64,000 nucleotides of DNA from Candidatus Krumholzibacteriota bacterium (GCA_016932415.1 JAFGCX010000011.1:104115-168114), one strand, 5' to 3'. Positions 19,303-40,774 are shown, counted from the stretch's first letter. Made by a program: numbers and translations. The notes: a model not told the origin generated them from the letters alone.

Positions 19303-20282
19303 TGCTCGACAGTGTCCAGCAGCCTGCCAACGAGTTCATCGGCAGTGATTCCGTCTGCTTCGGCGTGGAAATTTGCCACAAGCCTGTGACGAAGTACCGG
19401 CCAGGCGACTTCCCGCACATCATCAATGTCCGGTGTCGTCCTGCCAGTCATAACCGCCCTGGTCTTTGCTCCGAGTATAAGATACTGCCCCGCCCTCGGG
19501 CCGGCTCCCCACGAAAGATACTTTCCCACGCCGGGAAAGGTTCCATCTCTGCTAGCCCGCACGAGCCTCACCGCGTAGGAGAGGATCTTTTTCGAGACCG
19601 GGACCTTCATTATCATCTTTTGGATTTCAACGATCTCTTCTCCGCCTATGATTTTCTCCGGTGTTTCGGGAAGAGCAGAGGTAGTAGTGTCGACGATCGC
19701 TAGCTCTTCCTGCTCAGAGGGATAATCGACCCTGATATTGAACATGAACCTGTCCAGCTGCGCCTCGGGCAGAGGATAGGTGCCTTCCAGCTCGATCGGA
19801 TTCTGCGTGGCAAGGACGAAAAACGGCCTTTCAAGCGCGTGCGTCATCCCGCCTACGGTGACATCGTACTCCTGCATCGCCTGCAGAAGGGCCGCCTGTG
19901 TTTTTGGAGGAGTCCTGTTGATCTCGTCGGCAAGGACTATATTCGAGAAGACAGGCCCCCTGATGAACCTGAATACCCTGCCGTGAGTCGATTTGTCTTC
20001 TTCGAGGACCTCGGTCCCCATGATATCGCTTGGCATCAGGTCTGGAGTGAACTGGATCCGGGAAAAGTCAAGGCCGAGACATTCTGCTACCGTCGAAACG
20101 AGAAGTGTCTTCGCAAGGCCGGGGACGCCGACGAGAAGACAGTGCCCGCCGGCGAAAAGCGCGGTGATCAGCTCGTCGACCACCCTGTCCTGCCCTATTA
20201 TTACTTTTGCGATCTCGGCCCTGAGCCTTCCATACGCGTCGGCGAACCGGGCAAGAATGATCTCTTCCTTGTTATGATCCAT
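19299..20282 (-). CDS. moxR: MoxR-family AAA+ ATPase
   Basis: GHCLLVGVPGLAKTLLVSTVAECLGLDFSRIQFTPDLMPSDIMGTEV is diagnostic for MoxR. Confidence 0.9.
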   Translation of the reverse strand: MDHNKEEIILARFADAYGRLRAEIAKVIIGQDRVVDELITALFAGGHCLLVGVPGLAKTLLVSTVAECLGLDFSRIQFTPDLMPSDIMGTEVLEEDKSTHGRVFRFIRGPVFSNIVLADEINRTPPKTQAALLQAMQEYDVTVGGMTHALERPFFVLATQNPIELEGTYPLPEAQLDRFMFNIRVDYPSEQEELAIVDTTTSALPETPEKIIGGEEIVEIQKMIMKVPVSKKILSYAVRLVRASRDGTFPGVGKYLSWGAGPRAGQYLILGAKTRAVMTGRTTPDIDDVREVAWPVLRHRLVANFHAEADGITADELVGRLLDTVEQ

Positions 20283-24148: not shown

Positions 24149-27100
24149 TTATCTGAGGAGGATCATCTTGCGCGACACTGCCTTTCCTTCCACCGAGAGT
24201 CTGCAGAAATACACCCCCGCGCTCGCGAGTCTGCGGCTTCCGTCTTTTCCGTCCCACCTTATCTCGTGAGGCCCGGCCTGGCAGCCGCGGTCGAGGAGCG
24301 ATCGGACAAGCCTTCCACCCGCGTCATATATATCGATCGTCACGGGAGCCTCGCTTGAAAGTTCAAAACAGATCGTCACAGAGGGATTGAAGGGATTTGG
24401 AAAAAGCCGCGAAATGACCGGGGCTGGAAGAGTTCCCGGATCATTCGCTCCTTGAAGCGAGATCACCATATCCGTTGAATTCGTGTTGACCGAGACGATC
24501 GACTTCCCACCGTGATGAAAGACAGGTGATATATTGCCTCCCGAATCATTTCTCCACTCCGGGATCAGCTCGCGCAAGCCCTCTGGATTTTCCATTCCGA
24601 AAATCTCGATCCTTCCTTCAGCTCCCGGACAGTATATCCTGCCTTCCGAGATCGACACGCCTGAATATCCATATCCTTCCATCGCCTTCCTCGAGAGGAT
24701 CCTTCCCCCGGTCATCTCCGCGGCGTACAGCGCGGCCGCAGGTGGCGCCGTGGCCATGAAAAAGATGACTCCTTTTTCTATATCAACGCAAGCCGGGCCT
24801 GACAAGGCTCCATCAAAATCACTTCTCCAGATCGAAGATCCATCTTCAAGCGCCAGCACCTGCAGGATACCTGTAGAAGATATCGTCACCAGCCGGCCAG
24901 CGTGACAGATCATCGGAGCGGCCAGCGCCCCCCCGGAGGATGCCATCCATTCGATGGCGCCTGTCGAGGCGTGGATCCCTTTCAGTATGCCGGCCTGTGT
25001 CGAATAAACGAGGAGGTCGCCGCTTCCCGCCGGGGGAAAAGGACTGACAGCATCGCCTTCGCCAGGACGATCCTCCCAGAGTTTCCTGCCAGTAAATGGA
25101 TCGAAGGCGCAGACCCTGTCAATTCCACCAGTCGCCCTGTCGTGAAAAGCGACAAAGACTTTATTGCCGTGGACGACCGGGTCTTTAGCCACGCTGGTCT
25201 GATTGCCGGCCTCTTCCTCCACCCCGGCCGACCAGACGATCTCCGAAGAGGCCTGGTCGATCGCGTGCAGATACCTCCCGCATGAAGCGAACAGGACTCC
25301 CTTGAACCACGCCAGATACCGGGCTCCCGATTCAGAGATCCCGGGGAGTTCTCTTTTCCAAACGATAGAACCGTCAGCGAGAGAAATAGAGTAGACCGAG
25401 TTATGTTCCCCTTCTCTTCTTGAAACAAAGACCCTCGTTCCGGCAACAAGTGGCTGGCAGAGAAGCGATCCTTCTCCATCGAGTCCGCTCTCCCACTCTT
25501 TTTCCAGAGGAGGCTCTGCCGATCCGTAAAAAAATCCTGTGTGTCCCGTTCCACCCTGGCAAGATATTCCCTCTCCTTCCATCCCGGGATCTCCCGCGTA
25601 GGAGATCCAGAGTGGTATGCTGCTGTTCAGTCTTAATCCGGGCCCTTCCACTTCAAGCCGAAGACGCGACAGGGGCGCCTCGGCAATCTCTCCGATCTCA
25701 AACTCGAATCTCAGCGTCGCCTCGGAATTGACGGAGTCGAACACGGCGTATTCCCATTCAGTAGCCGTCTCCCCGCCAAGAGTTGAAATATCGAGGGATC
25801 CCCGGATTACCGATAGCTCGCCGGAGTGGTCTTTGAGACCGACCAGGCAGGCGATCCTTTCTCCCCTCCCCGCTCCACCGTCTCCATCCCCCGAAAGCTC
25901 CCTGATACCGATGACTGTCCGCTCGAGAGTTATTTTTCCAGTGATGGGGATCATAAATTCGATCGACGTCTCTCCCTGGTCGCAGTCGAGGCTCAGGTTC
26001 ACGCTCACTGCCTGCCCGGCCAGGGCCTCTTCAGCGACTGCCATACGGAGATCTATCGCTGTCTCATCAGAAGAAGTCATATCCCCGATGAAAAATTCCT
26101 TTTCCGACACGATAGAAATATACGGATCCCCGGTATCGACAGTAAGCGAAGCGGAAGTGATCTCCCGCCAGACATTCTTGACTGTCAGGGTAACCATGGC
26201 TGTCTCTCCCCCCTCGACCACTCCGTCTCCGTCCCCCGAATATTCCGCGCATAGATACCCGGCGACAGAGACCTTTATGCCCGGTTCCCTTTCAAGCGCG
26301 AGATCTGCCCTTACAAGCCCCGCTCCGGTGAATTCTTCCAGCCCCGGAGTGGAGATATTTTCCGCTGTATTGAGGATCTGGTTTTTTATCAACTCCGAAG
26401 TCTCGTATAATCCCGAGCTTTTCAGGAGAGCGGCAGTCCCGCTTACGAAAGGAGCGGCTACTGAAGTGCCGCTTCTATATCCGAACAGGCCTCCGGGTTC
26501 GGTCGACAAGATCGAGATCCCAGGCGCCGCGCAATCGGTCCAGCCACCATATCCCGAGAAGATCGCCGGCAGATCATTCCTGTCAACCGCGCCAACGGCG
26601 AGGCACTCGTCAAAAGCTCCCGGGTATACCGGCTCGTCGCTCCCGTTATTGCCTGAAGAAGCTATGATTATGACTCCGGCGTCGCTCGCATCTTTCACGG
26701 CCAGGTAAAGAGGCCCGGAATAACTTCCGCCAAAAGACATATTTATTATGTCCGCTCCGTTTTCAACGGCATAATCGAGCGCTTCGCAAATATCGCTCTC
26801 TTTAAGTTCTCCCGCGCCATCCCGGCGTTTATACCCCGCCCTGAGTATCATAAGCCTGCAACGGGGCGCGATCCCCTCAGTGCCGATACCATTACCTGCC
26901 CGGGAAGAGATTATTCCACTTATGTGTGTCCCATGGCCATGGATATCATCGGGGATAGGATCAGGCGGCCCGGGATCCTCTCCCGCCGCTACTTCTTCCT
27001 CCGTCGCGCTCACGAAATCATATCCATGCAGATCGTCGACATATCCATTACCATCGTCATCGATTCCGGAAAGGCCAGCGGCTTCAGCGATATTTATCCA

Positions 27101-27499
27101 GAGATTCTCCATCAGATCGGGATGATCGAGATCGCACCCCGTATCTATTACGGCAACGACGACACTGCTGTCACCTTCAGTTATAGCCCGAGCCTTCTCT
27201 ACCCCGATCCGGATCTTTCCCCAGGAATAAGGCCACAACGGATCGTGAGTTTCCAGGCAGAGCGATGTCTTGTTTATTTTTTCCATTTCATCGGACCCCG
27301 CGGCAGAATTCCCGCCCTCCTCGATGAACCCGTACCTGATATCTTTCTCGCAGATAAAAAATCTATTTTCTCCGGTGTCGCCGGACCTTTCGAGCCTGGC
27401 CCGGTCTGAGTATCGAGGGCTCCCTCCCGCGGGAGGGATGCAAATGATTACCGCGGCAAGAAAAAAACAGTTTCTCGCAGGTCTTTTGATTATTTTCAA
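24149..27499 (-). CDS. Secreted multidomain protein: S8 subtilisin-like protease, PQQ-like beta-propeller repeats and a C-terminal T9SS/Por-secretion-tail-like sorting domain
   Basis: Subtilase triad motifs VAVIDTGCD, HGTHISGI, GTSVAAPFVSG. Repeated xGxxxWxxx beta-propeller blades. C-terminus FPNPFNPSVTI...IYDAGGRLVR...WDGKDGSRRLASAGVYFCRL...SRKMILLR. Confidence 0.85.
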   Translation of the reverse strand: MKIIKRPARNCFFLAAVIICIPPAGGSPRYSDRARLERSGDTGENRFFICEKDIRYGFIEEGGNSAAGSDEMEKINKTSLCLETHDPLWPYSWGKIRIGVEKARAITEGDSSVVVAVIDTGCDLDHPDLMENLWINIAEAAGLSGIDDDGNGYVDDLHGYDFVSATEEEVAAGEDPGPPDPIPDDIHGHGTHISGIISSRAGNGIGTEGIAPRCRLMILRAGYKRRDGAGELKESDICEALDYAVENGADIINMSFGGSYSGPLYLAVKDASDAGVIIIASSGNNGSDEPVYPGAFDECLAVGAVDRNDLPAIFSGYGGWTDCAAPGISILSTEPGGLFGYRSGTSVAAPFVSGTAALLKSSGLYETSELIKNQILNTAENISTPGLEEFTGAGLVRADLALEREPGIKVSVAGYLCAEYSGDGDGVVEGGETAMVTLTVKNVWREITSASLTVDTGDPYISIVSEKEFFIGDMTSSDETAIDLRMAVAEEALAGQAVSVNLSLDCDQGETSIEFMIPITGKITLERTVIGIRELSGDGDGGAGRGERIACLVGLKDHSGELSVIRGSLDISTLGGETATEWEYAVFDSVNSEATLRFEFEIGEIAEAPLSRLRLEVEGPGLRLNSSIPLWISYAGDPGMEGEGISCQGGTGHTGFFYGSAEPPLEKEWESGLDGEGSLLCQPLVAGTRVFVSRREGEHNSVYSISLADGSIVWKRELPGISESGARYLAWFKGVLFASCGRYLHAIDQASSEIVWSAGVEEEAGNQTSVAKDPVVHGNKVFVAFHDRATGGIDRVCAFDPFTGRKLWEDRPGEGDAVSPFPPAGSGDLLVYSTQAGILKGIHASTGAIEWMASSGGALAAPMICHAGRLVTISSTGILQVLALEDGSSIWRSDFDGALSGPACVDIEKGVIFFMATAPPAAALYAAEMTGGRILSRKAMEGYGYSGVSISEGRIYCPGAEGRIEIFGMENPEGLRELIPEWRNDSGGNISPVFHHGGKSIVSVNTNSTDMVISLQGANDPGTLPAPVISRLFPNPFNPSVTICFELSSEAPVTIDIYDAGGRLVRSLLDRGCQAGPHEIRWDGKDGSRRLASAGVYFCRLSVEGKAVSRKMILLR

Positions 27500-27874: not shown

Positions 27875-28321
27875 ATGAAACTCGTAAGATGGATGCCGAC
27901 ATCGAACCTCAACAGGTTTGAAGATGAAGTAAACGATATTTTCAGCAGTTTTTTCCCGGCCAGACTCGATTACGCGCAGGGTGGCGGGAGAAATTGGGTT
28001 CCAAGGGTCAACGTCAGGGAACTCGATGAAAAATTCGAACTCAGCGCCGAGATTCCGGGGATGGAAAAGGACGAACTTTCCATTGAAGTCCAGGAAAACA
28101 CCCTTACTATAAGGGGAGAGAAGAAGACGGAAGAGAAGATCGAGAACGAGAAAATGCATATAAAAGAGATCTTTCGGGGAAAATTCGAAAGGTCTTTCAA
28201 GCTTCCCGAAAACATCAAGGCAGACGATGTAGACGCGGAATACAAAAACGGCATGCTGATCGTCTCGATCCCAAAAACTGAACCGGCAAAACCCAAAGAG
28301 ATCAATGTAAAGATCAAGTAA
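27875..28321 (+). CDS. Small heat-shock protein, Hsp20/alpha-crystallin family
   Basis: Alpha-crystallin domain (WVPRVNVRELDEKFELSAEIPGMEKDELSIEVQENTLTIRGEK...FERSFKLPENIKADDVDAEYKNGMLIVSIPK). Confidence 0.9.
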   Translation: MKLVRWMPTSNLNRFEDEVNDIFSSFFPARLDYAQGGGRNWVPRVNVRELDEKFELSAEIPGMEKDELSIEVQENTLTIRGEKKTEEKIENEKMHIKEIFRGKFERSFKLPENIKADDVDAEYKNGMLIVSIPKTEPAKPKEINVKIK

Positions 28322-28340
28322 GCCGGCGAAGCCCAGCGAT

Positions 28341-28372
28341 GAAAAGGGCCGCTTTCCAGCGGCCCTTTTTTT
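28341..28372. terminator. Bidirectional Rho-independent terminator between convergent hsp20 and bactofilin genes
   Basis: GAAAA-GGGCCGCT-ttcc-AGCGGCCC-TTTTTTT: perfect 8-bp GC-rich stem, A-tract on one side and T-tract on the other. Confidence 0.7.
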
Positions 28373-28428: not shown

Positions 28429-28905
28429 TTACTTCGCCCAGGCGTTAGCTGTATCTTTCTTTTCCTTTTCGTCTTTTTCGATCTTCGGCGCGGCAGAAGA
28501 GGACCTTCCATCAGGGCTCATCTTGCAGGAACCTTCAAAGAAGACACCTTCGTCAATAACGAGACGTGTCGTTTTAATATCACCTTCAAGCCTTGAGCCC
28601 GCCTGAAGTTCTATTTTTTCTCTCGCGTCGATATTGCCTGTCATCTCTCCGCCGATAACCGCGCTTGCGACTTTAACGTCGGCTTTTACCTTGCCGCCCT
28701 TACCGACAACCAGAGTACCAGGACAATTAACAGTCCCCTCGAACTCTCCATCGATCCTCAAAGTGCCATCCTTGACCTCTATCGTACCTTTTATGGTGCA
28801 CCCCTGCCCGATTATCGAGTTCATCTTTCCTTCAGTCACCATGATCTCACCTTCTTTCCCGAACTTTGAAAACCCCATCACTGGATTCTTTTTTTTCATT
28901 ATCAT
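28429..28905 (-). CDS. Bactofilin (DUF583, CcmA/BacA family cytoskeletal protein)
   Basis: Beta-helical repeat core typical of bactofilins (TIKGTIEVKDGTLRIDGEFEGTVNCPGTLVVGKGGKVKADVKV...) with a K/E-rich disordered C-tail. Confidence 0.85.
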   Translation of the reverse strand: MIMKKKNPVMGFSKFGKEGEIMVTEGKMNSIIGQGCTIKGTIEVKDGTLRIDGEFEGTVNCPGTLVVGKGGKVKADVKVASAVIGGEMTGNIDAREKIELQAGSRLEGDIKTTRLVIDEGVFFEGSCKMSPDGRSSSAAPKIEKDEKEKKDTANAWAK

Positions 28906-28907
28906 CC

Positions 28908-29705
28908 TTATTGCAAAAGGTATTTCAGGGGATCGACATGAAGGTTGTTCTGCGTTACCTCAAAATGCAGGTGTGGCGCGGAACTTCTTCCGGTATTCCC
29001 CGAATAGGCTATCGTCTGCCCCCTGCCGATCCGGTCTCCCTTAATTACTACCAGTCTTTCATTGTGTCCGTAAAGTGTTTTTATTCCATATCCGTGGTCT
29101 ATTTTGACAAAATACCCGTACGTGTCGTCCCATGCAGCCTCTATCACATACCCTGCCGCGGCTGCCCTCACGGGCACTCCCTTTTCTACCCCTATATCTA
29201 TACCGGGATGGTAGTCCTTGTCCTTCTCCCCTCCGGCAATATTATACCCCTTGGTGATATACCCCCTTACCGGCCAGAAGCTCGGTATCGCGCTCATCAT
29301 GCTTGATTTTTCGTTGTCGGTCTCGCCTGCCATATCCAGGTCTCCCGCGCTGGCATGCTTCAGGGCGACACTGTCTCGAGAGCTCAATCCGAGCCCGAGC
29401 AGATTCCTCACCTTTAATTCCATCGCGTGCATCTCTGAAAGGTCCCGCATAAGCTCTCCGATCTTTTCATTCTTTTTCGTCAGCTCGGCGACCTGCCTTT
29501 CGAGTCTTACAGTCTCTCTTGTCTTTACAAGCAACCTCCCGTATGTCAGAACGAAAATCGATACGGTCAGCGCTCCAGCGGCCAATATGACCATGAAAAA
29601 ATAAAAAAGCCTGTATGGGATCTTGTATGTCCTGGTTTTTTTCAGATCGTGAGGAACGATTATCACCGAAAATGTCTCTTTTTCCATTTCTTTTCCCACG
29701 ACCAC
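28908..29705 (-). CDS. Membrane-anchored M23 (LytM) endopeptidase with coiled coil, LmdC/Csd-like
   Basis: Single TM (FYFFMVILAAGALTVSIFVLTY), coiled coil, intact M23 motifs HPGIDIG...D and GNTGRSSAPHLHFEV. Immediately upstream of the bactofilin with a 2-nt gap. Confidence 0.8.
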   Translation of the reverse strand: MVVGKEMEKETFSVIIVPHDLKKTRTYKIPYRLFYFFMVILAAGALTVSIFVLTYGRLLVKTRETVRLERQVAELTKKNEKIGELMRDLSEMHAMELKVRNLLGLGLSSRDSVALKHASAGDLDMAGETDNEKSSMMSAIPSFWPVRGYITKGYNIAGGEKDKDYHPGIDIGVEKGVPVRAAAAGYVIEAAWDDTYGYFVKIDHGYGIKTLYGHNERLVVIKGDRIGRGQTIAYSGNTGRSSAPHLHFEVTQNNLHVDPLKYLLQ

Positions 29706-29722
29706 CCCGAGTGGGCCAGCCT

Positions 29723-30580
29723 TTATATCGCCGTCTCTATCCCCATTATTTTCAGAACTGCCTCAAGATCATCGTCTGAATAGTAATCTACGGTTATCGT
29801 CCCGCCCTTTTTGCCCGGCGTGATCCTCACCCTCGTGCCAAGATGCTTTTCCGCTCTTTCCTCAAGGGCTGTTATCGCCGCGTCTACCTTCCTTGCCGTT
29901 CTTCGTCTTTTTTTCCTTTTCCCGGGCGCTACCTCTATCTCGACTTCCCTTACCGATATCCCTTTCTCAACTACTTTCAGCGCCATCTCGATCCGTTTTT
30001 CATCCCCCTCGACAGCAAGTATCGCCCTGGCATGTCCGGCCTTGAGGCTTCCCTTTTCTATCAGTTCAAGCACCTTGTCAGGCAGGGACAGGAGCCTTAT
30101 CGTATTCGATACCGTCGTCCTGTCCTTACCGAGCAGCTGGGATATCTCTTTGACTGACAGGCCGAATTCATCTCTGAGCGCCTTGTATCCTCTTCCTTCC
30201 TCTACCGGATTAAGATCTTCTCTCTGAAGATTTTCAAGCAGGGCGAAATTCAAAGACTCCCTGTCCTTTATATCCCTGATAATAGCGGGGATCGTCGTTT
30301 TTCCCGCGATCTTCGAACTCCGGAGTCTTCTTTCCCCCATAATGAGCTGGTAGCGGTCGCCTTTTCTTCTTACGACGATCGGTTGGATCACTCCGTTTTT
30401 CCTGATTGATTCTGCGAGGTCCCCGAGCTGCTTCTCGTCGAAATAAGCCCGTGGCTGATACGGGTTCGGCTCGATTGAATCTATTTCCAGCTCCTTTACT
30501 CTTTCCGTTTCCGAGACGCTTTCTTTAAGGTCTTGTGATATAAGCGCTTCGAGCCCCCTGCCAAGCACAGTCCTTTTCAT
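29723..30580 (-). CDS. parB: Chromosome partitioning protein ParB (Spo0J)
   Basis: ParB box GERRLRSSKIAGKTTIPAIIRD and HTH region. 4-nt overlap with the parA stop. Confidence 0.9.
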   Translation of the reverse strand: MKRTVLGRGLEALISQDLKESVSETERVKELEIDSIEPNPYQPRAYFDEKQLGDLAESIRKNGVIQPIVVRRKGDRYQLIMGERRLRSSKIAGKTTIPAIIRDIKDRESLNFALLENLQREDLNPVEEGRGYKALRDEFGLSVKEISQLLGKDRTTVSNTIRLLSLPDKVLELIEKGSLKAGHARAILAVEGDEKRIEMALKVVEKGISVREVEIEVAPGKRKKRRRTARKVDAAITALEERAEKHLGTRVRITPGKKGGTITVDYYSDDDLEAVLKIMGIETAI

Positions 30581-31377
30581 GGGGATCCTCCCCTTTCTTT
30601 TTTCGCCGCGGGGTTCGTCCGCTTCTGTTTCTCTAAAATCTCTCTGGCAAGCATCAGGTAGCTTTTTGCGCCGCTACTCTGAACGTCATAAAGGATAACC
30701 GGTTTTCCAAAACTCGGCGATTCGCTCAGGCGCACATTTCTCGGGATTATACTGTCATAAACCTTTTCCCCAAAATAAGATATCGCTTCATCGGCAACCT
30801 GGCCCGACAACCTCAACCGTTTGTCAAACATCGTAAGCAGCACTCCCTCTATCGTCAGATCGGGATTGAGATGTTTCTGGACCATCCTGATTGTGCTTAG
30901 AAGCTGGCTCAACCCTTCAAGCGCGTAATATTCACACTGGATCGGTATCAACACTGAATCCGCCGCGGTCAACGTGTTCAACGTCAGGAGTCCCAGGCTC
31001 GGCGGACAATCTATTATTATAAAATCATATCTGTCCACAAGCGGCGCGAGAGCGGTTTTCAGTTTTCTTTCCCTCGCAAGCTGTGATACCAGCTCGATCT
31101 CCGCCCCGTTAAGCCTTGGATGGGAAGGGACAAGGTCGAGAAGCCCCGTCTTCTCAATTATATCCTCGACCCTCGTCTTTCCTATAAGCGCCTCATAAAT
31201 AGTCGGTTGTCCATTATCTATCCTTACGCCGAGCCCACTGCTCGCATTTGCCTGGGGATCGGCATCTACAAGAAGGACCTTTTCCTCTATCGCCCCGAGG
31301 CTTGCTCCGAGATTGACCGATGTCGTCGTCTTTCCGACACCACCCTTCTGATTCGCTACTGCTATTATTTTTCCCAT
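30577..31377 (-). CDS. parA: Chromosome partitioning ATPase ParA (Soj)
   Basis: Deviant Walker A KGGVGKTTTSVNLGASLG, ParA family length. Confidence 0.9.
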   Translation of the reverse strand: MGKIIAVANQKGGVGKTTTSVNLGASLGAIEEKVLLVDADPQANASSGLGVRIDNGQPTIYEALIGKTRVEDIIEKTGLLDLVPSHPRLNGAEIELVSQLARERKLKTALAPLVDRYDFIIIDCPPSLGLLTLNTLTAADSVLIPIQCEYYALEGLSQLLSTIRMVQKHLNPDLTIEGVLLTMFDKRLRLSGQVADEAISYFGEKVYDSIIPRNVRLSESPSFGKPVILYDVQSSGAKSYLMLAREILEKQKRTNPAAKKERGGSP

Positions 31378-31413: not shown

Positions 31414-32637
31414 TTACGGCTGGCTCATAAGCCATCCCGAATAATCTACATAGATATCCGGTTGCGGTGGCAGGAAGTCAAAGCCGTCATAAATCCTCTC
31501 CTGGATATCACTCTCATTTGTGACTCCCCAGAAGTTATATCTCGCGTCAATACCCGAATCGTTGAAATACTGAAAAAGCATAATGTCGTATCCGCCCGAC
31601 GCCTTATCGTTAAGATATATCGAATTATAGTTTATGACCGGTAGCGCGTAATATGAGATCTTTATCCCGTCGCCGACGTTCGTCGCGATCGTGCACCCTT
31701 CGATTGCCACATCATATATATCTCCCGATCCGTCTTCATCTATTTCGATCCAGATTCCGTATCCCGAGTTATCTCTTATCTCGCAATTGGTTATCTCTGC
31801 GTCAGCATCGAGGATATGTATGCCCCCGGCATTGTCCGAGACCCTGCAGTCTTCGACGGAAATCTCGGATTCTTCAACGTTTACGCCGATCCCTACTCCG
31901 TCATGGACAAATATCGAGTCAAGAACGACATTAGCTCCATCTTCAACGCTGATCCCCCTGACAGCCATCGTTATGTTGGCGTTTAATATGCTGCCCGACG
32001 CATCCGGCCCATCAAAGAGGATCCCTCTCCACACCCCGTCCTCCCCCGGACAGATATTCGGCTTGAAGATGACGGGCGATCCTGCCGTCCCGACAACCTC
32101 AAGCCTCCCAAAGACATTCAACCCTCCTTCTTCCTGATCGATCACAACCGTCACTCCCGCATGTATGCGGAGAGTGGCAGAGGAGCCGACGAAGACCGGT
32201 TGTGGCGAATCTATCATATAAAACGACCCGTTATCTGACAGCTCGGTAATCCCCGAAATGACAGGGAGAGCTTCTCCCACCTCTATCTCCGCGCTGCTTG
32301 TGCTTTCGTCCAACCGGTCTGTGGCCGTCACTTTAACCGTATATATTCCAGGCTCATCCGGCGCTATCCAGACAACCGAAAACCCCTCGCCTGATTCCGG
32401 GTAAAACTCTCCGTATTCAGCCTCCCATAGGACCGTGACCGGATCATCGTCAGGATCAGGGGCGGAACAGTAAAGCTCCACATCCCCCCCAGCCCCGACA
32501 AAACACTTCCCTATCGATATTTTGGGATCGTCAGGTGGCTTGTTATGGAATCCCAGGGACTGGTCGCAGCTTGAAAAGGTAGCCACTGAAAGGGTAAATA
32601 CCCCTAACACAATGAAACAATATGACTTGACCTGCAT
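31414..32637 (-). CDS. Lipoprotein with Ig-like domain and right-handed parallel beta-helix (PbH1) repeats
   Basis: Signal plus lipobox (TFSSC). Repeated GxxVxxNxIxDNxGxGI-type beta-helix rungs (CRVSDNAGGIHILDADAEITNCEIRDNSGYGIWIE...). Lies between rsmG and parA. Confidence 0.55.
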   Translation of the reverse strand: MQVKSYCFIVLGVFTLSVATFSSCDQSLGFHNKPPDDPKISIGKCFVGAGGDVELYCSAPDPDDDPVTVLWEAEYGEFYPESGEGFSVVWIAPDEPGIYTVKVTATDRLDESTSSAEIEVGEALPVISGITELSDNGSFYMIDSPQPVFVGSSATLRIHAGVTVVIDQEEGGLNVFGRLEVVGTAGSPVIFKPNICPGEDGVWRGILFDGPDASGSILNANITMAVRGISVEDGANVVLDSIFVHDGVGIGVNVEESEISVEDCRVSDNAGGIHILDADAEITNCEIRDNSGYGIWIEIDEDGSGDIYDVAIEGCTIATNVGDGIKISYYALPVINYNSIYLNDKASGGYDIMLFQYFNDSGIDARYNFWGVTNESDIQERIYDGFDFLPPQPDIYVDYSGWLMSQP

Positions 32638-32735
32638 TTCCTTCTCCCTGTCAATCAGATGGGGTCCAGATGATTATAGGGTCGCTTTTATGATAAATCA
32701 ATGGAAATCTCTCCCGGGCGGGCGGAAAGGGATGA

Positions 32736-32751
32736 CGTTTCACGTGAAACG
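32736..32751. promoter_or_regulatory. parS site (CGTTTCACGTGAAACG)
   Basis: Perfect 16-bp palindrome whose inner 14 bp equal the parS consensus tGTTTCACGTGAAACa. Upstream of the parAB-containing operon near oriC. Confidence 0.75.
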
Positions 32752-32829: not shown

Positions 32830-32845
32830 CGTTTCACGTGAAACG
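32830..32845. promoter_or_regulatory. parS site (CGTTTCACGTGAAACG), second copy
   Basis: Identical 16-mer 94 bp from the first copy, just downstream of the rsmG stop. Confidence 0.75.
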
Positions 32846-32851: not shown

Positions 32852-33523
32852 TCAGTCCTTTTCTCTTCTGAAGAGCAGCAACGATCCCCTCTCTCCTTCT
32901 GCCGGCTCTGAAAAATCGAGGGTCATCTTCCCAGAATATCCCTCCAGCTCCCATTCCCACTCGCTTCCCTTTATCGTCAGGTACTTTCCGCCCGCGCCGA
33001 GAAGCGATTCAGCAAGAGGGAGGATCGCCGGCAGCCTCCCGGCCGCCTTGGAGATAACAAGGTCGTAAACGGCCTTTCCGCTGTCAAGCGCCGCATCCCC
33101 GCGGGTCCTGGTCCCCTCGAGGCTCATAAGAACGGCCAGCCTTTCAAGAAAGAGAGCTGCTTTTTCCTTCCTTTCATAGAAAGTGATCTCGGTCCCCGGA
33201 GATAGAATCTTCCATATTATCCCCGGAAAACCGTACCCACTCCCTATGTCGGCGACCCTGATTGCCTCCTGATCCTTTTCCTGCTTTCTGGCCAGCGCTC
33301 CCGTCCTTTCGGCGAAATAAAGCATCAGCAGAGAATCGACCACCTGCCTTTCCAGGGATTCACCGAAGCTGCCCCTGGCGACAAGGTGCATCTTTTCACC
33401 CCATTCGATCTGCTCCCTGGCGAAGAGTTTTATTCTTTCGATCCCGGCATCGTCGAGCCTTCCGGGAAAAAGTCCTTCCGCCCTCTCGATGATCTTCTCT
33501 GCTATCTTTGTCTTTTCTGTCAT
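32852..33523 (-). CDS. rsmG: 16S rRNA (guanine527-N7)-methyltransferase RsmG (GidB)
   Basis: SAM-binding motif DIGSGYGFPGI. 4-nt overlap with the mnmG stop. Canonical position. Confidence 0.85.
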   Translation of the reverse strand: MTEKTKIAEKIIERAEGLFPGRLDDAGIERIKLFAREQIEWGEKMHLVARGSFGESLERQVVDSLLMLYFAERTGALARKQEKDQEAIRVADIGSGYGFPGIIWKILSPGTEITFYERKEKAALFLERLAVLMSLEGTRTRGDAALDSGKAVYDLVISKAAGRLPAILPLAESLLGAGGKYLTIKGSEWEWELEGYSGKMTLDFSEPAEGERGSLLLFRREKD

Positions 33524-35433
33524 TTTCCGGTTTTCCCCGTCTCCGGGCCGTTTTCCACTCGTTTTCTGCTTTTTTCCAGAAAGATCATCAGTATCGACAG
33601 GTCGGAATTTCTCACCCCGGTGATCCTCGATGCCTGGCCAAGGGTATGAGGCTTGAATCTCGCGAGCTTTTCCCTCGCCTCGGTGCTCAGCGCTTCCAAT
33701 TCGAACGAAAAGCCTTCCGGTATTACCATCTTGTCCATTTTCAACAACTTGTGCGCTATCCTCTTCTGCCTCGATATATACCCGTCATACTTGACCTCTA
33801 TCGCCAGCATCCCGAGTTCCCTCTCGGAGAGCCCCAGTCCCCTGTCGCCGAGCACTTTTTCTATTTTTTCCGCTCCTATCCCCGGGTGTCTCGCCAGCTG
33901 GATCGCCGGCCTTGCTTCTTTCACCTCAGGGATCTCCACCCCGCCAAAGACCTTGTTTATCTTCGCCGCCGGGATGATCTCCCTTTCCAGCCTTCTTTTT
34001 GCCTTCAGGACCTTTTTCTTCCTCGAGATCATCTCGAGCCACAAGCCTTTGTCGAGAAGCCCGAACTTTACTCCGTACCGGAAAAGCCTTTCGTCGGCAT
34101 TGTCCTGCCTGAGCAGCAGCCTGTGTTCCGCCCTCGAGGTAAACATCCTGTATGGTTCATCGATCTCTTTTGTTATCAGATCATCGACCATGACTCCGGC
34201 GTATGCCATCTGGCGTCCCGGGATAAAAGGCGCCTCACCCCTGAGGGACAGCGAAGCGTTGATTCCAGCCAGGATTCCCTGGGCTGCCGCCTCTTCATAT
34301 CCCGATGTCCCGTTTACCTGCCCGGCAAAGTAGAGGCCTTCGATCCTCTCCGATTCGAGGGACGCGCTGATCTGGTGGGGGGGGAAAAAGTCGTACTCTA
34401 TCGCGTATCCATATCTTACTATTTCCGCCTGCTCAAGCCCTTCTATGGTTCTTATCATCTTTTCCTGGATCTCCGCCGGAAGGCTTGTCGAGAGACCGTT
34501 GATATAGATCTCTTCGGAATCCCTGCCCTCCGGTTCGAGAAATATCTGATGTCTCGGACGATCTGAGAACCTGACGACTTTGTCTTCGATCGAAGGGCAG
34601 TATCTCGGCCCCACTCCCTTTATCTGCCCCGAAAAGAGGGGGGCCCGGCTTATATTGTCCTTGATGATCTCGTGGGTCCTCGCGTTTGTATATGTTATGT
34701 GGCATGAGATCTGGTCGACTTCAAGGGATTTTGTCCTGAAAGAAAAGGGGCTTGGGAATATATCGCCCGGCTGTTCTTCGCATCTTGAAAAATCTATGCT
34801 TTCTCTCCTCAGCCTCGCCGGAGTCCCCGTCTTAAGCCGCCCTCTCTCTATTCCCTTTCTCGCAAGATCGTCGGAGAGGCGGCATGATGGCGGCTCTCCT
34901 TCCCTTCCCCCTGGTATTTTCCTTTCTCCTATATGCATCAACCCGTTAGGAAAAGTCCCGAGCGCCATTATTACCTTCCGCCCCGCTATCCTCTCCCCCG
35001 AAACCGCAACTCCTACGACCTTTCCACTTTCCACGATTATTTCTTCGACCTCCGCCTCTGCCAGATCGAGCTGTTCGGCCAGGACGAGCGCCTCAAGCAT
35101 CCTTTTGTGATATACTTTCTTGTCGGCCTGCGCCCTTGGAGACCAGACCGCCGGCCCTTTGGCCCTGTTCAGCATCCTGAACTGTATCCCCGCCGCGTCG
35201 ATGCAAAGCCCCATCTCCCCTCCGAGGGCGTCGACCTCTCTTACAAGCTGACCTTTTGCCAGGCCGCCGATGGCGGGGTTGCATGGCATCCTAGCTATGT
35301 CGCCCGTATTGATAGTCGCCAGCAGAGTATCGTTTCCCATCCGAGCCGCCGCGAGAGCTGCTTCGCAACCGGCGTGTCCAGCACCAACGACTATAATGTC
35401 ATATCTTTTATCAAGGGTTTTAGTAATAATCAT
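33520..35433 (-). CDS. mnmG: tRNA uridine-5-carboxymethylaminomethyl modification enzyme MnmG (GidA)
   Basis: FAD-binding N-terminus YDIIVVGAGHAGCEAALAAARMG, full-length GidA homology. Confidence 0.95.
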   Translation of the reverse strand: MIITKTLDKRYDIIVVGAGHAGCEAALAAARMGNDTLLATINTGDIARMPCNPAIGGLAKGQLVREVDALGGEMGLCIDAAGIQFRMLNRAKGPAVWSPRAQADKKVYHKRMLEALVLAEQLDLAEAEVEEIIVESGKVVGVAVSGERIAGRKVIMALGTFPNGLMHIGERKIPGGREGEPPSCRLSDDLARKGIERGRLKTGTPARLRRESIDFSRCEEQPGDIFPSPFSFRTKSLEVDQISCHITYTNARTHEIIKDNISRAPLFSGQIKGVGPRYCPSIEDKVVRFSDRPRHQIFLEPEGRDSEEIYINGLSTSLPAEIQEKMIRTIEGLEQAEIVRYGYAIEYDFFPPHQISASLESERIEGLYFAGQVNGTSGYEEAAAQGILAGINASLSLRGEAPFIPGRQMAYAGVMVDDLITKEIDEPYRMFTSRAEHRLLLRQDNADERLFRYGVKFGLLDKGLWLEMISRKKKVLKAKRRLEREIIPAAKINKVFGGVEIPEVKEARPAIQLARHPGIGAEKIEKVLGDRGLGLSERELGMLAIEVKYDGYISRQKRIAHKLLKMDKMVIPEGFSFELEALSTEAREKLARFKPHTLGQASRITGVRNSDLSILMIFLEKSRKRVENGPETGKTGK

Positions 35434-35469: not shown

Positions 35470-36828
35470 TTATTTTCCTATACAAAACCGGCTGAAGATC
35501 GTTTCGAGCAGTTCTCCCGCTATCGACCGCCCCGTGATCTTCCCGAGCGCTTCTGCCGCTTCCCTGATCTCGAGGCTCATTATCTCCGCCCTGCCCTTCC
35601 CTTCGAGTTCTTCGAGCATCCTTTTCAGGCCTCGCGAGCACTCTTTCAGGGCCGCGGCGTGCCTCGAGCTTACCGCGCCATTTTCCCTGACTCTTTCGGC
35701 TATATCTTTCCTTATCGTGCCGGTGTGGATCATATCCCTGAGCCTGGAGATGTTCTCCCCCGTCTTTGCCGACACCTCTATCTCCGGCCCGCTTAGGCCA
35801 CGGTCCTCCGAAGCGATCACTACCCCCAGATCGCGCTTGTTGAAGACTATTATATGGTTCTTCTTCTCTATCCTGGCTATTTCCCTTTTCGTTTCCTCGT
35901 CAAGCCCGGCGCTGCCATCTACAACGAAGAGTATCAGGTCCGATCCTTCGGCAGCCTTCCTTCCGATCGATATTCCCCTCGCTTCGATCTCGCACCCCGT
36001 TTCCGCGATCCCCGCCGTATCTTCGAGAAAATATGTGAATCCGCCGATATGGATCCTTTCCCTGAGAAGGTCCCTCGTAGTCCCCGGAATAGCAGATACT
36101 ATAGCCCTTTCCTCACCCAGTAGCGCGTTGTAGATGCTGCTTTTTCCCGCGTTTCTCGGCCCCAGCACTGTCACCCTGATGCCCTGCCTGAGTTTTTTCC
36201 CGGCGATCTCAGACTCTATCATTCCTTCTATCTCGCCGATCGCTCCGTCGATATTCTCGCGAAGAATCTCACTGTCGTATGTCTCGATATCTTCTTCCGA
36301 AAAATCGATTGAAAGCTCGATCAGGGCAAGCTGCCGCAGGAGAATCGCCTCTATGTCTCCTATCTTTCTTGACAGCGACCCTTCAAGCTGTTCGAGCGCG
36401 ACGCGTCCCTGGAGCTTTGTCTCCGCCGATATAAGATCAACGACCGCTTCGGCCTGTGCCAGGTCGAGCTTTCCTTTCAGGTAGGCTCTTTTCGTGAATT
36501 CTCCCGGGCCGGCGATCTCCGCGCCAAGCCTGACCGCTTCTTCTATGATCGAGGAGTAGACGTAGATGCTTCCATGGCAGGATATCTCTATGACATCCTC
36601 TCCCGTATATGAATTCGGCGCAAACATCGCCGTGACGAGGACCTCGTCGATCTGTTCGCCGGTGGAATTTTTTATGATCCTTTTGTATACCCTGTGTGAT
36701 TCCCGGCGGCCAGCCGGATCCGCCATCGAATCGAGGATTCCGAGCGCGTCGGGTCCCGAGATCCTGATCACGGCTATTCCCGAGACTCCAGGCGGAGTAC
36801 TCAGGGCAACGACAGTGGTTCCGTCCAT
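35470..36828 (-). CDS. mnmE: tRNA modification GTPase MnmE (TrmE)
   Basis: G-domain motifs (GPRNAGKSS, DTAG), C-terminal CIGK motif. Confidence 0.95.
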   Translation of the reverse strand: MDGTTVVALSTPPGVSGIAVIRISGPDALGILDSMADPAGRRESHRVYKRIIKNSTGEQIDEVLVTAMFAPNSYTGEDVIEISCHGSIYVYSSIIEEAVRLGAEIAGPGEFTKRAYLKGKLDLAQAEAVVDLISAETKLQGRVALEQLEGSLSRKIGDIEAILLRQLALIELSIDFSEEDIETYDSEILRENIDGAIGEIEGMIESEIAGKKLRQGIRVTVLGPRNAGKSSIYNALLGEERAIVSAIPGTTRDLLRERIHIGGFTYFLEDTAGIAETGCEIEARGISIGRKAAEGSDLILFVVDGSAGLDEETKREIARIEKKNHIIVFNKRDLGVVIASEDRGLSGPEIEVSAKTGENISRLRDMIHTGTIRKDIAERVRENGAVSSRHAAALKECSRGLKRMLEELEGKGRAEIMSLEIREAAEALGKITGRSIAGELLETIFSRFCIGK

Positions 36829-36831: not shown

Positions 36832-37533
36832 CTATTTTCTGCCAGACCGGTTCGATTTTCTCTCCCGGCCCTTGTCCGCGGAGACAAAGACCTTTCTCAT
36901 CTCCCCGTTCCCGACGGTATAAGTCGTTATCCCTTCCATCCCGGCGAGTGTCATATGGATGATACGCCTCTCGGACGCTTTCATCGGTTCGATTCCGACT
37001 TCCCTCTGCGTCTTTTTAGCTCTTTCGGCCGCTTTCTCAGCTTTCTGCCTGAGGATCTCCTGCCTGTTCTTCAGGTATCCGCCAACATCGACAGTCAACC
37101 TCTGGTATCCGCCCATCTTCCTCGACACGATCCTCCCGATCAGGTGCTGAAGCGAGTTCAGCGTGTCTCCCTTCCTGCCGATGAGCAGCCCGTCGACACC
37201 AGCCGTTTCTATATTTATATATGTCGAATCGTCTATCGTGTCAGAAAATATCCTGTACCCGACATCCAGCCCTTTCATTATAAGCCCGGTGACTTCGTCG
37301 GCTACCTCCTCTATCCCCTTCGATCCATTTTTCATCGACACCTTGACTCTCGCGCTCCTGGCGCCGAAGATCCCCAGGACCCCCTTCTGTCCGGGATCTA
37401 TTATCTCAATATCTACATCTTCTATTTTCGAACCAAGGTCTTTCAGCGCCTTCTCCAGCGCTTTCTCTACAGTCTTTCCCTCTACCTCTACCGGTCTGCT
37501 ATTTATTCTTTCCTGTCTCCCGTGCTTTTCCAT
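36832..37533 (-). CDS. jag: Jag/KhpB RNA-binding protein (Jag_N, KH, R3H)
   Basis: KH and R3H domain signatures. Canonical position between yidC and mnmE. Confidence 0.8.
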   Translation of the reverse strand: MEKHGRQERINSRPVEVEGKTVEKALEKALKDLGSKIEDVDIEIIDPGQKGVLGIFGARSARVKVSMKNGSKGIEEVADEVTGLIMKGLDVGYRIFSDTIDDSTYINIETAGVDGLLIGRKGDTLNSLQHLIGRIVSRKMGGYQRLTVDVGGYLKNRQEILRQKAEKAAERAKKTQREVGIEPMKASERRIIHMTLAGMEGITTYTVGNGEMRKVFVSADKGRERKSNRSGRK

Positions 37534-37657: not shown

Positions 37658-39457
37658 CTATGCGGTTACTTCGCCTTCCGCCGCTTCGGTCTCTATCGCC
37701 TTATGTACATAATACTGCTGGACGATCGACAGTATGTTGTTGATCAGCCAGTAAAGCACCAGGCCCGAAGGCATTCCGTAAAAAATAAACGTAAATACCA
37801 CCGGCATCATCGTTGTCATCATCTTGGTCTGCGCTGCCGGCCCCGCGTCTCCAGTCGGAGAGCCACCCATCTTTGACTGGACGAACATCGCCACGCCCAT
37901 CAGAAGAGGAAGCAGGTGGAACTCGCTTCCGATGACAGGCAGGCTGAAACCAAACCCGAACAGGACGTCCGGCGATGAAAGATCATTGATCCACAACCCA
38001 AGGGGGGCGTCTCTGAGTTCAATCGTGTTTCTGAGAACGTTAAAAAGAGCTATGAAAACAGGCATCTGAAAAAGAAGAGGCAGGCATCCGCCAAGGGGAT
38101 TGACCCCCGCCTCCTTGTACATCTTCATCGTTTCCTGGTTCAGTTTTTCTTTTTCGTTCTTGTACTTCTCCTGCAGGGCTTTGAGTTTTGGCTGGAGCCG
38201 CTGCATATCTTTCATCGATTTGAAGCTCTTGTGCGTGAGCCTGTAGAACAGGACTTTCGTCAGGATCGAGAGTATTATTATTATCAGCCCGTAGTTGGGA
38301 ATGAACCCTTTCATCCACATCATCAGGCGAAGGACAAAAACGCTGAAAAATCGCATCTTGCCAAGCTCTATTGTCCTTTCCAGCCCTACTCCGTAATCCT
38401 TCAGCCCGTTCATGTCAAGAGGCCCGAAATAACATTTGAACGAATCTTCGACTTTTCTCGGGTCTCCCCGGAATGGATAAAATATCGAATACCCGGACAT
38501 GCTGCTGTCCTTGTCTCCGAGCATCTCCAGGACTCCCGAGCGCTGCTCGTCCACTATTACCGCGCTGAGGAAGTATTTGCTTCTCGCGCCGGCCCAAACG
38601 ACCATGCCTTCCTGGACTTTCCTGTCCGTTTTGCCGAATTTGCCCGAGCCCTCCTTATAATATTCATCCCCCACGCGCCCGAGCGAGGCCATCTGCCTTA
38701 TCTCCCATTTTCTGTCTTTCTCGTTCAGCGCCAGGCCGCTCTCCCACGCGATCGCGTACCCACTGGCCCCTTTCATCTCTCCCTCTCTTACCAGGGAGAT
38801 CGCCACGCCTACTTCGTAGCCCTCTCGCGAGAACCGGAACCTTTTTTCGACAGTCCCTCCCGAAGCCCCTCTCCATCTGAAGAGGACTGTCGCCTCGATG
38901 CTTTCTCCGGTCAGGTCGATCTCCTCACCGTCATAGATCTCTCTGCCGTTGACAAGAGCGTCAAACCGGGCGCCGGAAAAGCCGGTCCTCTCCATGTCTT
39001 TCTCAACGTAGAGGGAAAGAGCCCCCTTCGCCCCTTCGGGAACGAGCTCAACATCCCCTCCGTCGCTCCTGGCGAATTCCCTCAGCTTAATACTCGTGAT
39101 CTCCCCGCCGAGACTGCTCAGCGCGACTCTCATCTTCTCCGTAGCGACGGTAAAATTCCTTGTCTCCGCCGGATCATCAGGGGAAAAGAGCCTCCCCGTT
39201 CCCTCCCGCGCCTTGCTTTCGAAAAACTCCCCCTCCGCCTTTTCTCCGCCCGCCGGCAGATCCTCATCCGCGCCCTCCCTCGCGCTGTATTCCGATCCGG
39301 CCTCGAGGGAAGCGAGTGAATCGGCTACGGCCTGCTCGCGCAGTTCCACGGCTCTTCTGAGCGCCGCCTCTTTCTGCCTGGGCGCCACATAGAGCATCTG
39401 CCATCCGAGCAATATCGCAAAGGTCACTGCTATAGCCAGAATAGAGCGCTTATCCAT
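37658..39457 (-). CDS. yidC: Membrane protein insertase YidC
   Basis: Large periplasmic P1 domain followed by the conserved 5-TM core (LLTKVLFYRL...GVNPLGGCLPLLFQMPVFIALFNVL). Confidence 0.9.
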   Translation of the reverse strand: MDKRSILAIAVTFAILLGWQMLYVAPRQKEAALRRAVELREQAVADSLASLEAGSEYSAREGADEDLPAGGEKAEGEFFESKAREGTGRLFSPDDPAETRNFTVATEKMRVALSSLGGEITSIKLREFARSDGGDVELVPEGAKGALSLYVEKDMERTGFSGARFDALVNGREIYDGEEIDLTGESIEATVLFRWRGASGGTVEKRFRFSREGYEVGVAISLVREGEMKGASGYAIAWESGLALNEKDRKWEIRQMASLGRVGDEYYKEGSGKFGKTDRKVQEGMVVWAGARSKYFLSAVIVDEQRSGVLEMLGDKDSSMSGYSIFYPFRGDPRKVEDSFKCYFGPLDMNGLKDYGVGLERTIELGKMRFFSVFVLRLMMWMKGFIPNYGLIIIILSILTKVLFYRLTHKSFKSMKDMQRLQPKLKALQEKYKNEKEKLNQETMKMYKEAGVNPLGGCLPLLFQMPVFIALFNVLRNTIELRDAPLGLWINDLSSPDVLFGFGFSLPVIGSEFHLLPLLMGVAMFVQSKMGGSPTGDAGPAAQTKMMTTMMPVVFTFIFYGMPSGLVLYWLINNILSIVQQYYVHKAIETEAAEGEVTA

Positions 39458-39504: not shown

Positions 39505-39735
39505 TCAGCGAACAGGATCATATCCGCCACGGGAGAACGGGTTGCATTTCAGAAGCCGGACAACGGCCTTGCCGCTTCCCTTGAAGAAACCATATTTCTT
39601 CAGAGATTCTTCCGCGTATGCCGAACAGGAAGGTGTAAACCTGCAGACCGGTGCGTGGTACGGGGAAATCGATATTCTGTATATCCTGACGGCCGCCAGA
39701 CCGGCTTTAGTCAGAATCCTGGATATCATCCGCAA
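39505..39735 (-). CDS. yidD: Membrane protein insertion efficiency factor YidD
   Basis: YRISISPYHAPVCRFTPSCSAYAEESL signature. Overlaps the rnpA stop by 10 nt. Confidence 0.85.
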   Translation of the reverse strand: MRMISRILTKAGLAAVRIYRISISPYHAPVCRFTPSCSAYAEESLKKYGFFKGSGKAVVRLLKCNPFSRGGYDPVR

Positions 39736-40094
39736 CTTGATATCAGTCCGGCTCTCTTGAGAGAGCTCACTACATCTTCCGTGAGTTCCTGAAATGATGT
39801 CTCCTCAGGACGAAATGAGGCTATAAATACTATCCAGATATTTTTCTCGTTAATTCGGTCCTTGACTGTTCTGAATATTTCCCTCATCAGCCTTTTCGCC
39901 CTGTTACGCTGATAAGCCTTTCCAACGTTCTTTTTGCTGGCCACGAATCCCGGCAGAAGGCCCCTGTTCTCATCATCCCCCTCACCGTTTCTTCCCAGGT
40001 ACAGTATCGTGATCTTTTGCCCCGCCTCCCTTTTCCCTTCACTGTAGACGAGCCTGAACTGCCTGCTATTCTTTAGTCCTTTCATCGATACCAT
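39726..40094 (-). CDS. rnpA: RNase P protein component RnpA
   Basis: Basic 122-aa protein with an RNR-like motif region (AYQRNRAKRLMRE). Sits 21 nt downstream of rpmH. Confidence 0.85.
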   Translation of the reverse strand: MVSMKGLKNSRQFRLVYSEGKREAGQKITILYLGRNGEGDDENRGLLPGFVASKKNVGKAYQRNRAKRLMREIFRTVKDRINEKNIWIVFIASFRPEETSFQELTEDVVSSLKRAGLISSCG

Positions 40095-40115
40095 CGCCCG
40101 GGCTCATCCCGGAGG

Positions 40116-40250
40116 TCATACGGCCAGCCTCTTTCTTCCTTTTTCTCTTCTTCGCCTGAGCACTTCCCTGCCGTTCTTCGTGCTCATTCTTTTTCTGAAT
40201 CCGTGAGTTCTTTTTCTTCTCTTGTTATGAGGCTGAAATGTGCGTTTCAT
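40116..40250 (-). CDS. rpmH: 50S ribosomal protein L34
   Basis: Not in the ORF track (<60 aa). Reverse-strand translation [44 protein letters not shown] is a near-perfect L34. Confidence 0.9.
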
Positions 40251-40627: not shown

Positions 40628-40636
40628 TGTGGATAA
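40628..40636 (-). promoter_or_regulatory. DnaA box TGTGGATAA (perfect consensus, reverse orientation)
   Basis: Exact reverse complement of TTATCCACA. Confidence 0.7.
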
Positions 40637-40695
40637 CGTCATGACATCATATTGAAAACCCCGCCGCTAATGTTGTTATTATTAAAGTTATAGAG

Positions 40696-40715: not shown

Positions 40716-40774
40716 CAAGAAAGATTTTGAAAGCTGCCGGCCTTTCCGACGGACCGGTATCTTCGGTCATTGCT

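Follow-up and report, generated by a model that had tools for sequence, protein, structure and literature searches.

Gene order and transcription signals at the par locus

The stretch of DNA analyzed here, referred to as the window, comprises 64,000 nucleotides (nt) of a metagenome-assembled genome (MAG) of Candidatus Krumholzibacteriota and contains four adjoining minus-strand genes for the partitioning proteins ParA and ParB, a candidate M23 endopeptidase, and a bactofilin. An earlier interpretation made from the DNA alone (the sequence-only reading) had described these genes as a parA-parB operon extended by an LmdC-like M23 endopeptidase gene and a bactofilin gene. We listed the open reading frames (ORFs) of the window and scanned them against Pfam with the curated cut-offs. 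All four gene calls, including the profile-based calls of the M23 peptidase and the bactofilin, scored above these cut-offs. The parA gene (positions 30577-31377) encodes a Soj-type partition ATPase (AAA_31, E value 2.9e-66; CbiA, 7.3e-29), and its translation contains the deviant Walker A motif KGGVGKTT. The parB gene (29723-30580) encodes a centromere-binding protein with the domains ParB_N (3.5e-33), HTH_ParB (5.6e-31), and ParB_C (5.8e-10), a GERRLR motif in the translation, and a score of 190 bits against the NCBIfam model TIGR00180 (cut-off 58). Assignment of this protein as Noc was rejected, as it scored under the cut-off of the NCBIfam Noc model. The M23 gene (28908-29687; Peptidase_M23, 3.5e-32) directly precedes the bactofilin gene (28429-28905; Bactofilin, 9e-30), as had been noted in the sequence-only reading.

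The genes follow each other at short distances, which we could reproduce only in part. The 4-nt overlap of parA and parB was found as described. The 17-nt gap reported between parB and the M23 gene is obtained only with the GTG start codon at 29705 of the longest ORF (28908-29705). We placed the start at the ATG at 29687 (MEKETFS, 259 amino acids), because an NCBI protein from Candidatus Krumholzibacteriota with 100% identity and about 120 homologues begin there, and from this codon the gap is 35 nt. The distance between the M23 gene and the bactofilin gene is 2 nt according to the ORFs, as reported, or 29 nt if the bactofilin starts at the alternative ATG at 28878.

The spacer between parB and the M23 gene showed no significant structure (z = -0.68) and no T-run, and no terminator was found between the parA, parB, M23, and bactofilin genes. 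Behind the bactofilin gene, a bidirectional intrinsic-terminator hairpin is located at 28339-28369. It consists of an A-run, a 12-bp GC-rich stem, and a T-run and has a calculated energy of -29.5 kcal/mol (z = -4.47; 0 of 200 shuffled sequences folded as well). This hairpin is predicted to close both the operon and the hsp20 gene (27875-28321, plus strand), which is convergent with the end of the bactofilin gene. The signals argue for co-transcription of the four genes as an operon, in agreement with the sequence-only reading, but the transcription unit probably begins further upstream than proposed there. In the window, parA is preceded at a distance of 36 nt by a minus-strand gene (31414-32637) for a putative lipoprotein with a PKD domain (1.3e-6) and a right-handed, NosD-like beta-helix (Beta_helix, 3e-15), whose translation begins with a lipobox-like sequence. 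This gene was present between rsmG and parA in most of the Krumholzibacteriota loci described below and absent from loci L027 and L040 to L042 and from other phyla. In this lineage, the transcription unit probably starts with it.

The lipoprotein gene lies between parA and two parS-like palindromes, which are located in a 214-nt spacer following rsmG. Both palindromes (32736-32751 and 32830-32845) have the sequence CGTTTCACGTGAAACG and match the palindrome TGTTTCACGTGAAACA at 14 of 16 positions. They are the only two such matches in the whole window, where 0.10 would be expected by chance. The same spacer holds the best promoter match of the region, a minus-strand sigma-70-like sequence at 32673-32701 (TTGATT and TATAAT, separated by 17 nt; 10 of 12 consensus positions), and the first parS-like site lies 35 nt upstream of its -35 hexamer. 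This match is a possible promoter of the operon. The number of promoter-like matches in the region (8, compared to 5.0 +/- 2.5 in shuffled sequences) was not above expectation, and the sigma-70 consensus may fit the promoters of the Fibrobacterota-Chlorobiota-Bacteroidota (FCB) group poorly. Nearly all Krumholzibacteriota loci that extend over this rsmG-proximal spacer contain the parS pair in it, and Gemmatimonadota and other loci also have a parS-like pair close to parA. The position of the sites suggests that ParB may be loaded at the 5′ end of the operon, possibly with autoregulation.

The proposed location next to the origin of replication was borne out. The start of parA is 9.3 kb away from dnaA, and dnaA, the DnaA boxes, and the minimum of the cumulative GC skew, which turns at about 42 kb, are all situated 9 to 11 kb from the par locus. 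Three perfect DnaA boxes (TTATCCACA) were found in the entire window, at 40628, 42146, and 42295, and thus on both sides of dnaA (40706-42130, plus strand). They are neighbored by near-perfect boxes, forming clusters in the regions 40095-40705 and 42131-42480. These clusters and the turn of the skew likely mark oriC. The minus-strand genes rnpA (39726-40094), yidC (37658-39457), jag (36832-37533), mnmE (35470-36828), mnmG (33520-35433), and rsmG (32852-33523) lead away from dnaA toward the par locus, and dnaA, dnaN, recF, gyrB, and gyrA point in the opposite direction. The deviant-Walker ParA, the three-domain ParB, and the origin-proximal parS palindromes are those of a chromosomal ParABS system. 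Searches of the window for Rfam families and tRNA genes gave no match.

The M23 protein and the bactofilin

The sequence-only reading had attributed to the M23 protein a transmembrane segment, a coiled coil, and a catalytically intact LytM domain. Structure prediction, hydropathy, and conservation agreed with the transmembrane segment and the intact LytM domain, showed a long helix, and additionally pointed to a cytoplasmic hairpin. An AlphaFold2 model calculated with a 55-sequence alignment including distant representatives reached a predicted local distance difference test score (pLDDT) of 90.7. A model based on a shallow alignment of 22 sequences (pLDDT 58.6) was discarded except for the N-terminus. 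A beta-hairpin formed by the strands 5-10 and 19-24 (pLDDT 79 to 89; sequence FSVIIVPHDLKKTRTYKIP) is predicted in the cytoplasm, before the transmembrane helix. It is followed by an unbroken helix (residues 25-97), two short helices, and the M23 domain (residues 143-251; Pfam match at residues 165-259), with the predicted periplasmic helices extending to residue 133. The hydropathy peak at residues 28-48 is the sole strongly hydrophobic segment and places the transmembrane helix at about these residues. The predicted layout is thus bitopic, with a short cytoplasmic N-terminus, one transmembrane helix, a periplasmic helical region, and a C-terminal M23 domain.

Within the 55-sequence family, the motifs H160-x3-D164 and H239-L-H241 are invariant and H208 is conserved in at least 90% of the members. 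As the zinc-binding and catalytic residues are invariant or nearly so across the family, the protein is expected to be an active enzyme rather than a degenerate LytM-type activator. Apart from the catalytic residues, no part of the family is conserved as sharply as the 24-residue N-terminal tail. The pattern of this tail consists of a hydrophobic residue, S/T, four hydrophobic residues, Pro12 (present in 93%), a turn, T-x-T, and a hydrophobic, a basic, and a hydrophobic residue.

A different function of the M23 protein would be that of a divisome or cell-separation factor of the EnvC/NlpD/DipM type, acting as an amidase activator or septal hydrolase independently of the bactofilin. A Foldseek comparison with the PDB retrieved generic LytM domains, the top matches being EnvC LytM domains and full-length EnvC with its coiled coil, and the protein showed weak similarity to the NCBIfam models of DipM and EnvC. 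The top match by sequence among solved structures was Helicobacter pylori Csd1 (5j1l_A, 2.7e-21). Activators of the EnvC type have degenerate active sites, and EnvC is a secreted periplasmic protein. The M23 protein of the window, in contrast, has an intact active site and is predicted to carry its own transmembrane helix and the conserved cytoplasmic hairpin, and the bactofilin gene comes next in nearly every relative examined. The NCBIfam scores were far below the cut-offs for all equivalog models, among them DipM (85 versus 740 bits), MepM (83 versus 341), EnvC (69 versus 270), and Pgp3 (83 versus 300), and membership in these four families was rejected. We therefore consider a role as an EnvC-type factor very unlikely.

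By its architecture, its catalytic residues, and the adjacency to a bactofilin gene, the protein is a candidate for an LmdC-type endopeptidase. An LmdC clade of M23 peptidases was reportedly described by Figueroa-Cuilan in 2021. No alphaproteobacterial LmdC was recognizable among the representatives of 330 to 500 amino acids inspected for it, and the comparison with LmdC was made via its published description. By analogy, the M23 protein would have DD-endopeptidase specificity and its hairpin would bind the bactofilin. The layout of tail, transmembrane helix, helical region, and M23 domain recurs in many M23 proteins of 250 to 360 amino acids from other phyla. Among them are proteins of eight Nitrospirota loci (L045 to L049, L053, L055, and L056; KKKEYFTIMIVPGPNSRVRTIRIS...), where neither a bactofilin gene nor parAB was found within 6 kb of the M23 gene. 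Proteins with this tail thus do not always have a bactofilin encoded in cis.

The bactofilin scored 103 bits against PF04519 (cut-off 27.9), with the beta-helical polymer-forming domain at residues 30-128, and matched the structures of BacA (2n3d, 5.4e-9) and of a Thermus bactofilin (6ria, 1.6e-7). Relatives conserve the sequence MFGKEGE, which aligns with Met10 (MGFSKFGKEGE), and the true start may thus be the ATG at 28878. With the start codon being ambiguous, MGFSKFGK at Met10 resembles the membrane-targeting motif of bactofilins, for which the N-terminal consensus MFSKKKK has been reported, with acidic residues at position 4 in Bacteroidota (PMC12448750). Here, Lys4 is kept and is followed by an acidic residue, which makes the tail less basic than the consensus. 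The C-terminal tail comprises about 30 residues and is not a long tail of the BacP type. In many Krumholzibacteriota bactofilins (loci L001 to L044; positions 28429-28470 in the window), the protein ends with a K-rich stretch followed by (A/S/G)-W-(A/S/N)-K, and another subgroup of these loci ends with P-V-G-A-(K/R). To our knowledge, C-terminal motifs of this kind have no assigned function, and this one could serve for the binding of clients.

Conservation of the four-gene block

The sequence-only reading had proposed to check the conservation of the gene order in related MAGs. We carried out this check with a scan based on the M23 alignment, using one genome per GTDB species and labeling the ORFs with the proteins of the window. 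An exact-sequence look-up of the M23 protein in its 265- and 259-amino-acid forms had retrieved no contig. The scan yielded 44 loci of the Krumholzibacteriota type (49 to 77% identity). The order parA-parB-M23-bactofilin was present in 41 of the 41 loci that were long enough, without a counter-example, and the other 3 loci, which are cut by contig ends, show the same order in their visible part. The median gap in the 44 loci was 30 nt between parB and the M23 gene (range, 1 to 106) and 9 nt between the M23 gene and the bactofilin gene (range, -4 to 43). Taken alone, the conservation within the phylum is weak evidence, because the rest of the region is syntenic, too.

We also searched 1.8 billion cluster representatives with the M23 protein and retrieved the gene neighborhoods of ten distant homologues of full length. 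Seven of these homologues were scored directly against the M23 protein of the window and showed 33 to 38% identity. In eight of the ten cases, the contiguous four-gene block was found (three Gemmatimonadota, one Zixibacteria, and four untyped MAGs). In the three Gemmatimonadota MAGs, parB and the M23 gene even overlap by 1 to 4 nt. In the Zixibacteria MAG (L083), the block is intact although it is no longer preceded by mnmG and rsmG and the parS pair has another position. The two exceptions are L085, with an M23-bactofilin pair lacking parAB, and L087, in which parAB is followed by three M42 peptidase genes and then the M23 gene, with no bactofilin gene. Since the flanking genes differ between phyla, the block itself is the conserved unit, and its recurrence in every related locus long enough and in other phyla indicates that the adjacency is not due to chance. 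A looser version of the linkage occurs in a distant phylum. In three Bacillota MAGs (L051, L052, and L064), parAB is accompanied by parS, and 1.9 kb downstream on the same strand lies a bactofilin gene preceded by the gene of an M23 protein with the tail. The one or two intervening genes are unrelated and encode either a DUF554 protein and an alanine racemase or a C39-like peptidase.

Based on these results, we favor with moderate confidence the interpretation that the locus is an origin-proximal operon co-expressing two separable modules, a ParABS system and a peptidoglycan-remodeling pair, whose link is transcriptional. In the first module, ParB would be loaded onto the two nearby upstream parS palindromes, and origin segregation would be driven by the ParA ATPase. 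In the second, the bactofilin would polymerize along the cytoplasmic side of the membrane and capture the cytoplasmic beta-hairpin of the M23 protein, so that the periplasmic LytM domain would cleave peptidoglycan cross-links locally and thereby shape growth. The modules would be linked by the shared promoter, by the gene dosage and timing that result from the proximity to the origin, and possibly by spreading of ParB from parS over the operon, but probably do not form a physical complex. The deep and tight linkage suggests selection for co-expression.

Several points weigh against this interpretation. An internal promoter within parB is possible, and promoters of the FCB group may not fit a sigma-70 scan. 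Two distant loci have gaps that leave room for a promoter, namely, 269 nt between parB and the M23 gene (L084) and 202 nt between the M23 gene and the bactofilin gene (L086). The linkage across at least three phyla despite lost synteny exceeds what hitchhiking would explain and could reflect a functional dependency, which we rank second. Moreover, conservation alone establishes neither a transcriptional link nor such a dependency, as rsmG-parA-parB is deeply syntenic without a functional link.

The promoter-related points would fit a separate expression of the two gene pairs, in which the M23 gene and the bactofilin gene form a bicistron with a promoter in the 3′ end of parB and the adjacency is inherited origin synteny without regulatory meaning. 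The order jag-mnmE-mnmG-rsmG-parA-parB is indeed an ancient synteny of functionally unrelated genes, and in Hyphomonas neptunium lmdC-bacA is a stand-alone bicistron (PMC10945521). Weak promoter-like hexamers are present in the window at 29686-29659 and 28839-28811. They match at only 9 of 12 positions, fall within the coding regions of the M23 protein and the bactofilin, and do not occur more often than in shuffled sequences. The gaps of 1 to 2 nt or overlaps in several lineages, the lack of a terminator after parB, and the survival of the Zixibacteria block beyond its surrounding synteny also argue against separate expression, which we consider unlikely.

Some further genes of the window recur around the block or form clusters of their own. 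A minus-strand gene at 24149-27499 encodes a secreted subtilase (Peptidase_S8; 1116 amino acids) fused to a BamB/PQQ-like beta-propeller, with a C-terminal FlgD-Ig-like domain resembling a type IX secretion sorting signal. Homologues of it are located downstream of the four-gene block in several relatives. About 8 kb downstream of the bactofilin gene, a minus-strand cluster of MoxR AAA+, DUF58, and BatA-VWA genes (16222-20282) resembles an aerotolerance operon. The same cluster follows the bactofilin gene almost directly in the Zixibacteria MAG and in two untyped MAGs (L086 and L088), and its placement suggests an older extended synteny. Three genes for peptidyl-prolyl isomerases of the SurA/PpiC type lie in a row at 8757-12727 (minus strand), downstream of mfd (12771-16232).

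Relation of the two modules and comparison with known systems

The functional dependency mentioned above could consist in a physical coupling, in which the bactofilin polymer bound to the membrane, together with its M23 client, holds ParB-parS or ParA in a defined cell position, so that segregation and wall remodeling are spatially coupled. Models for such a coupling are BacNOP-PadC, PopZ, and DivIVA. It would be consistent with the co-occurrence of the four genes in Krumholzibacteriota, Gemmatimonadota, and Zixibacteria even where the flanking synteny is broken, with the parB/M23 overlap in Gemmatimonadota, with the looser Bacillota arrangement, and with the finding that bactofilins of Myxococcus can organize ParABS (PMC5703909). 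The sequence-only reading had referred to this Myxococcus scaffold as a precedent, but the details of that system do not bear this out. In M. xanthus, ParABS is organized by BacNOP via the adapter PadC, all encoded away from parAB. BacP bound neither ParA nor ParB directly, and its role depends on PadC and on its long C-terminal tail (PMC5703909). The bactofilin directly downstream of parAB is BacM, which had no effect on ParA and ParB localization (Lin 2017, PMC5703909) and is dispensable for segregation although parA, parB, bacM, and MXAN_7474 are co-transcribed (Iniesta 2014, PMC3899335).

At the window locus, no gene for a PadC-like protein with a second ParB-like domain was found among the neighboring genes scanned against Pfam around the operon, and the bactofilin has only its short C-terminal tail. 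In addition, the M23-bactofilin pair occurs without parAB in L085, and parAB with a downstream M23 gene occurs without the bactofilin in L087. As neither an adapter gene among the scanned neighbors nor an extended tail was found, and as BacM acts independently of segregation, a physical ParAB-bactofilin complex is without support from the sequence, and we regard physical coupling as rather unlikely. The claim of one combined segregation and morphogenesis module found no support in the form stated. A more far-reaching version would be that in a deep branch of the FCB group, comprising Krumholzibacteriota, Gemmatimonadota, Zixibacteria, and allies, the bactofilin and the M23 protein have become an obligatory partner of ParABS without a PadC-type adapter. 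If this were true, ParB-parS or ParA would be anchored by a membrane-bound platform of bactofilin, which would also direct peptidoglycan cleavage at the same site, and origin capture and remodeling of the pole or bud site would be performed by one machine encoded in one operon. We judge this improbable.

The locus presents known parts in a new arrangement. All components are of known kinds, and both the M23-bactofilin pairing and a parAB-bactofilin operon in Myxococcus have been published. We found no publication on a parAB-M23-bactofilin operon or dealing with bactofilins in the phyla that carry it, and among the matches listed in a literature search for bactofilins in Krumholzibacteriota, Gemmatimonadota, Zixibacteria, or Fibrobacter, none was relevant. 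We also found no cultured carrier of the block, the search for Gemmatimonadota homologues having returned MAGs only. Bactofilin-M23 pairs and ParABS have each been studied in detail. Whether wall remodeling is wired to segregation has been answered in few model bacteria, and here the genes for both are found in one tight block. The retention of this block in at least three phyla that have diverged from each other and are largely uncultured provides a testable hypothesis of cell-cycle coordination, and the compact LmdC-type candidate with its sharply conserved tail would be suited for studies of binding. Should the two modules be connected by transcription alone, as is suggested by the precedent of Myxococcus, the finding would be of comparative-genomic interest and would not represent a new mechanism.

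M23 endopeptidases encoded beside or tied to bactofilins and involved in cell-shape control are Csd1/Csd2 with CcmA in H. pylori, where the Csd1 gene adjoins the bactofilin gene ccmA, and Pgp3 in Campylobacter jejuni. The window shares with these systems the link of an M23 endopeptidase to a bactofilin, and Csd1 was its best match among solved structures. In contrast to the window, Csd1/Csd2-CcmA and Pgp3 have no linkage to parAB, and orthology to Pgp3 was rejected by the score given above.

With regard to Myxococcus, the window resembles parAB-bacM in having a bactofilin gene downstream of chromosomal parAB near oriC. It differs in that no M23 gene is located between parB and the bactofilin gene there, and the fourth gene encodes a lipoprotein of unknown function. 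As BacM serves only the maintenance of cell shape, this precedent counts against a functional coupling at the window locus. With the BacNOP-PadC system, the window has in common the presence of a bactofilin and ParABS in one organism, but lacks at this locus the PadC-like adapter and the extended C-terminus of BacP.

In architecture, the window pair resembles LmdC-BacA of H. neptunium and Rhodospirillum rubrum. LmdC is a bitopic M23 DD-endopeptidase whose cytoplasmic N-terminal beta-hairpin binds BacA, and adjacent M23 and bactofilin genes were reported for 226 species, including FCB members such as Fibrobacter (F. succinogenes S85) and Ignavibacterium (I. album), with no mention of parAB (Pöhl 2024, eLife, PMC10945521). 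As in these bacteria, the M23 gene of the window is located directly upstream of the bactofilin gene on the same strand, and its product combines a predicted short cytoplasmic tail with a beta-hairpin, a transmembrane helix, a periplasmic helical region, and an M23 domain with all metal ligands. The protein is much shorter than R. rubrum LmdC (259 versus about 460 amino acids, the latter calculated from gene coordinates in the source data of PMC10945521) and is predicted to have one long and two short helices in place of the three coiled-coil regions of LmdC. Unlike the lmdC-bacA bicistron, the pair described here is embedded in a parAB operon.

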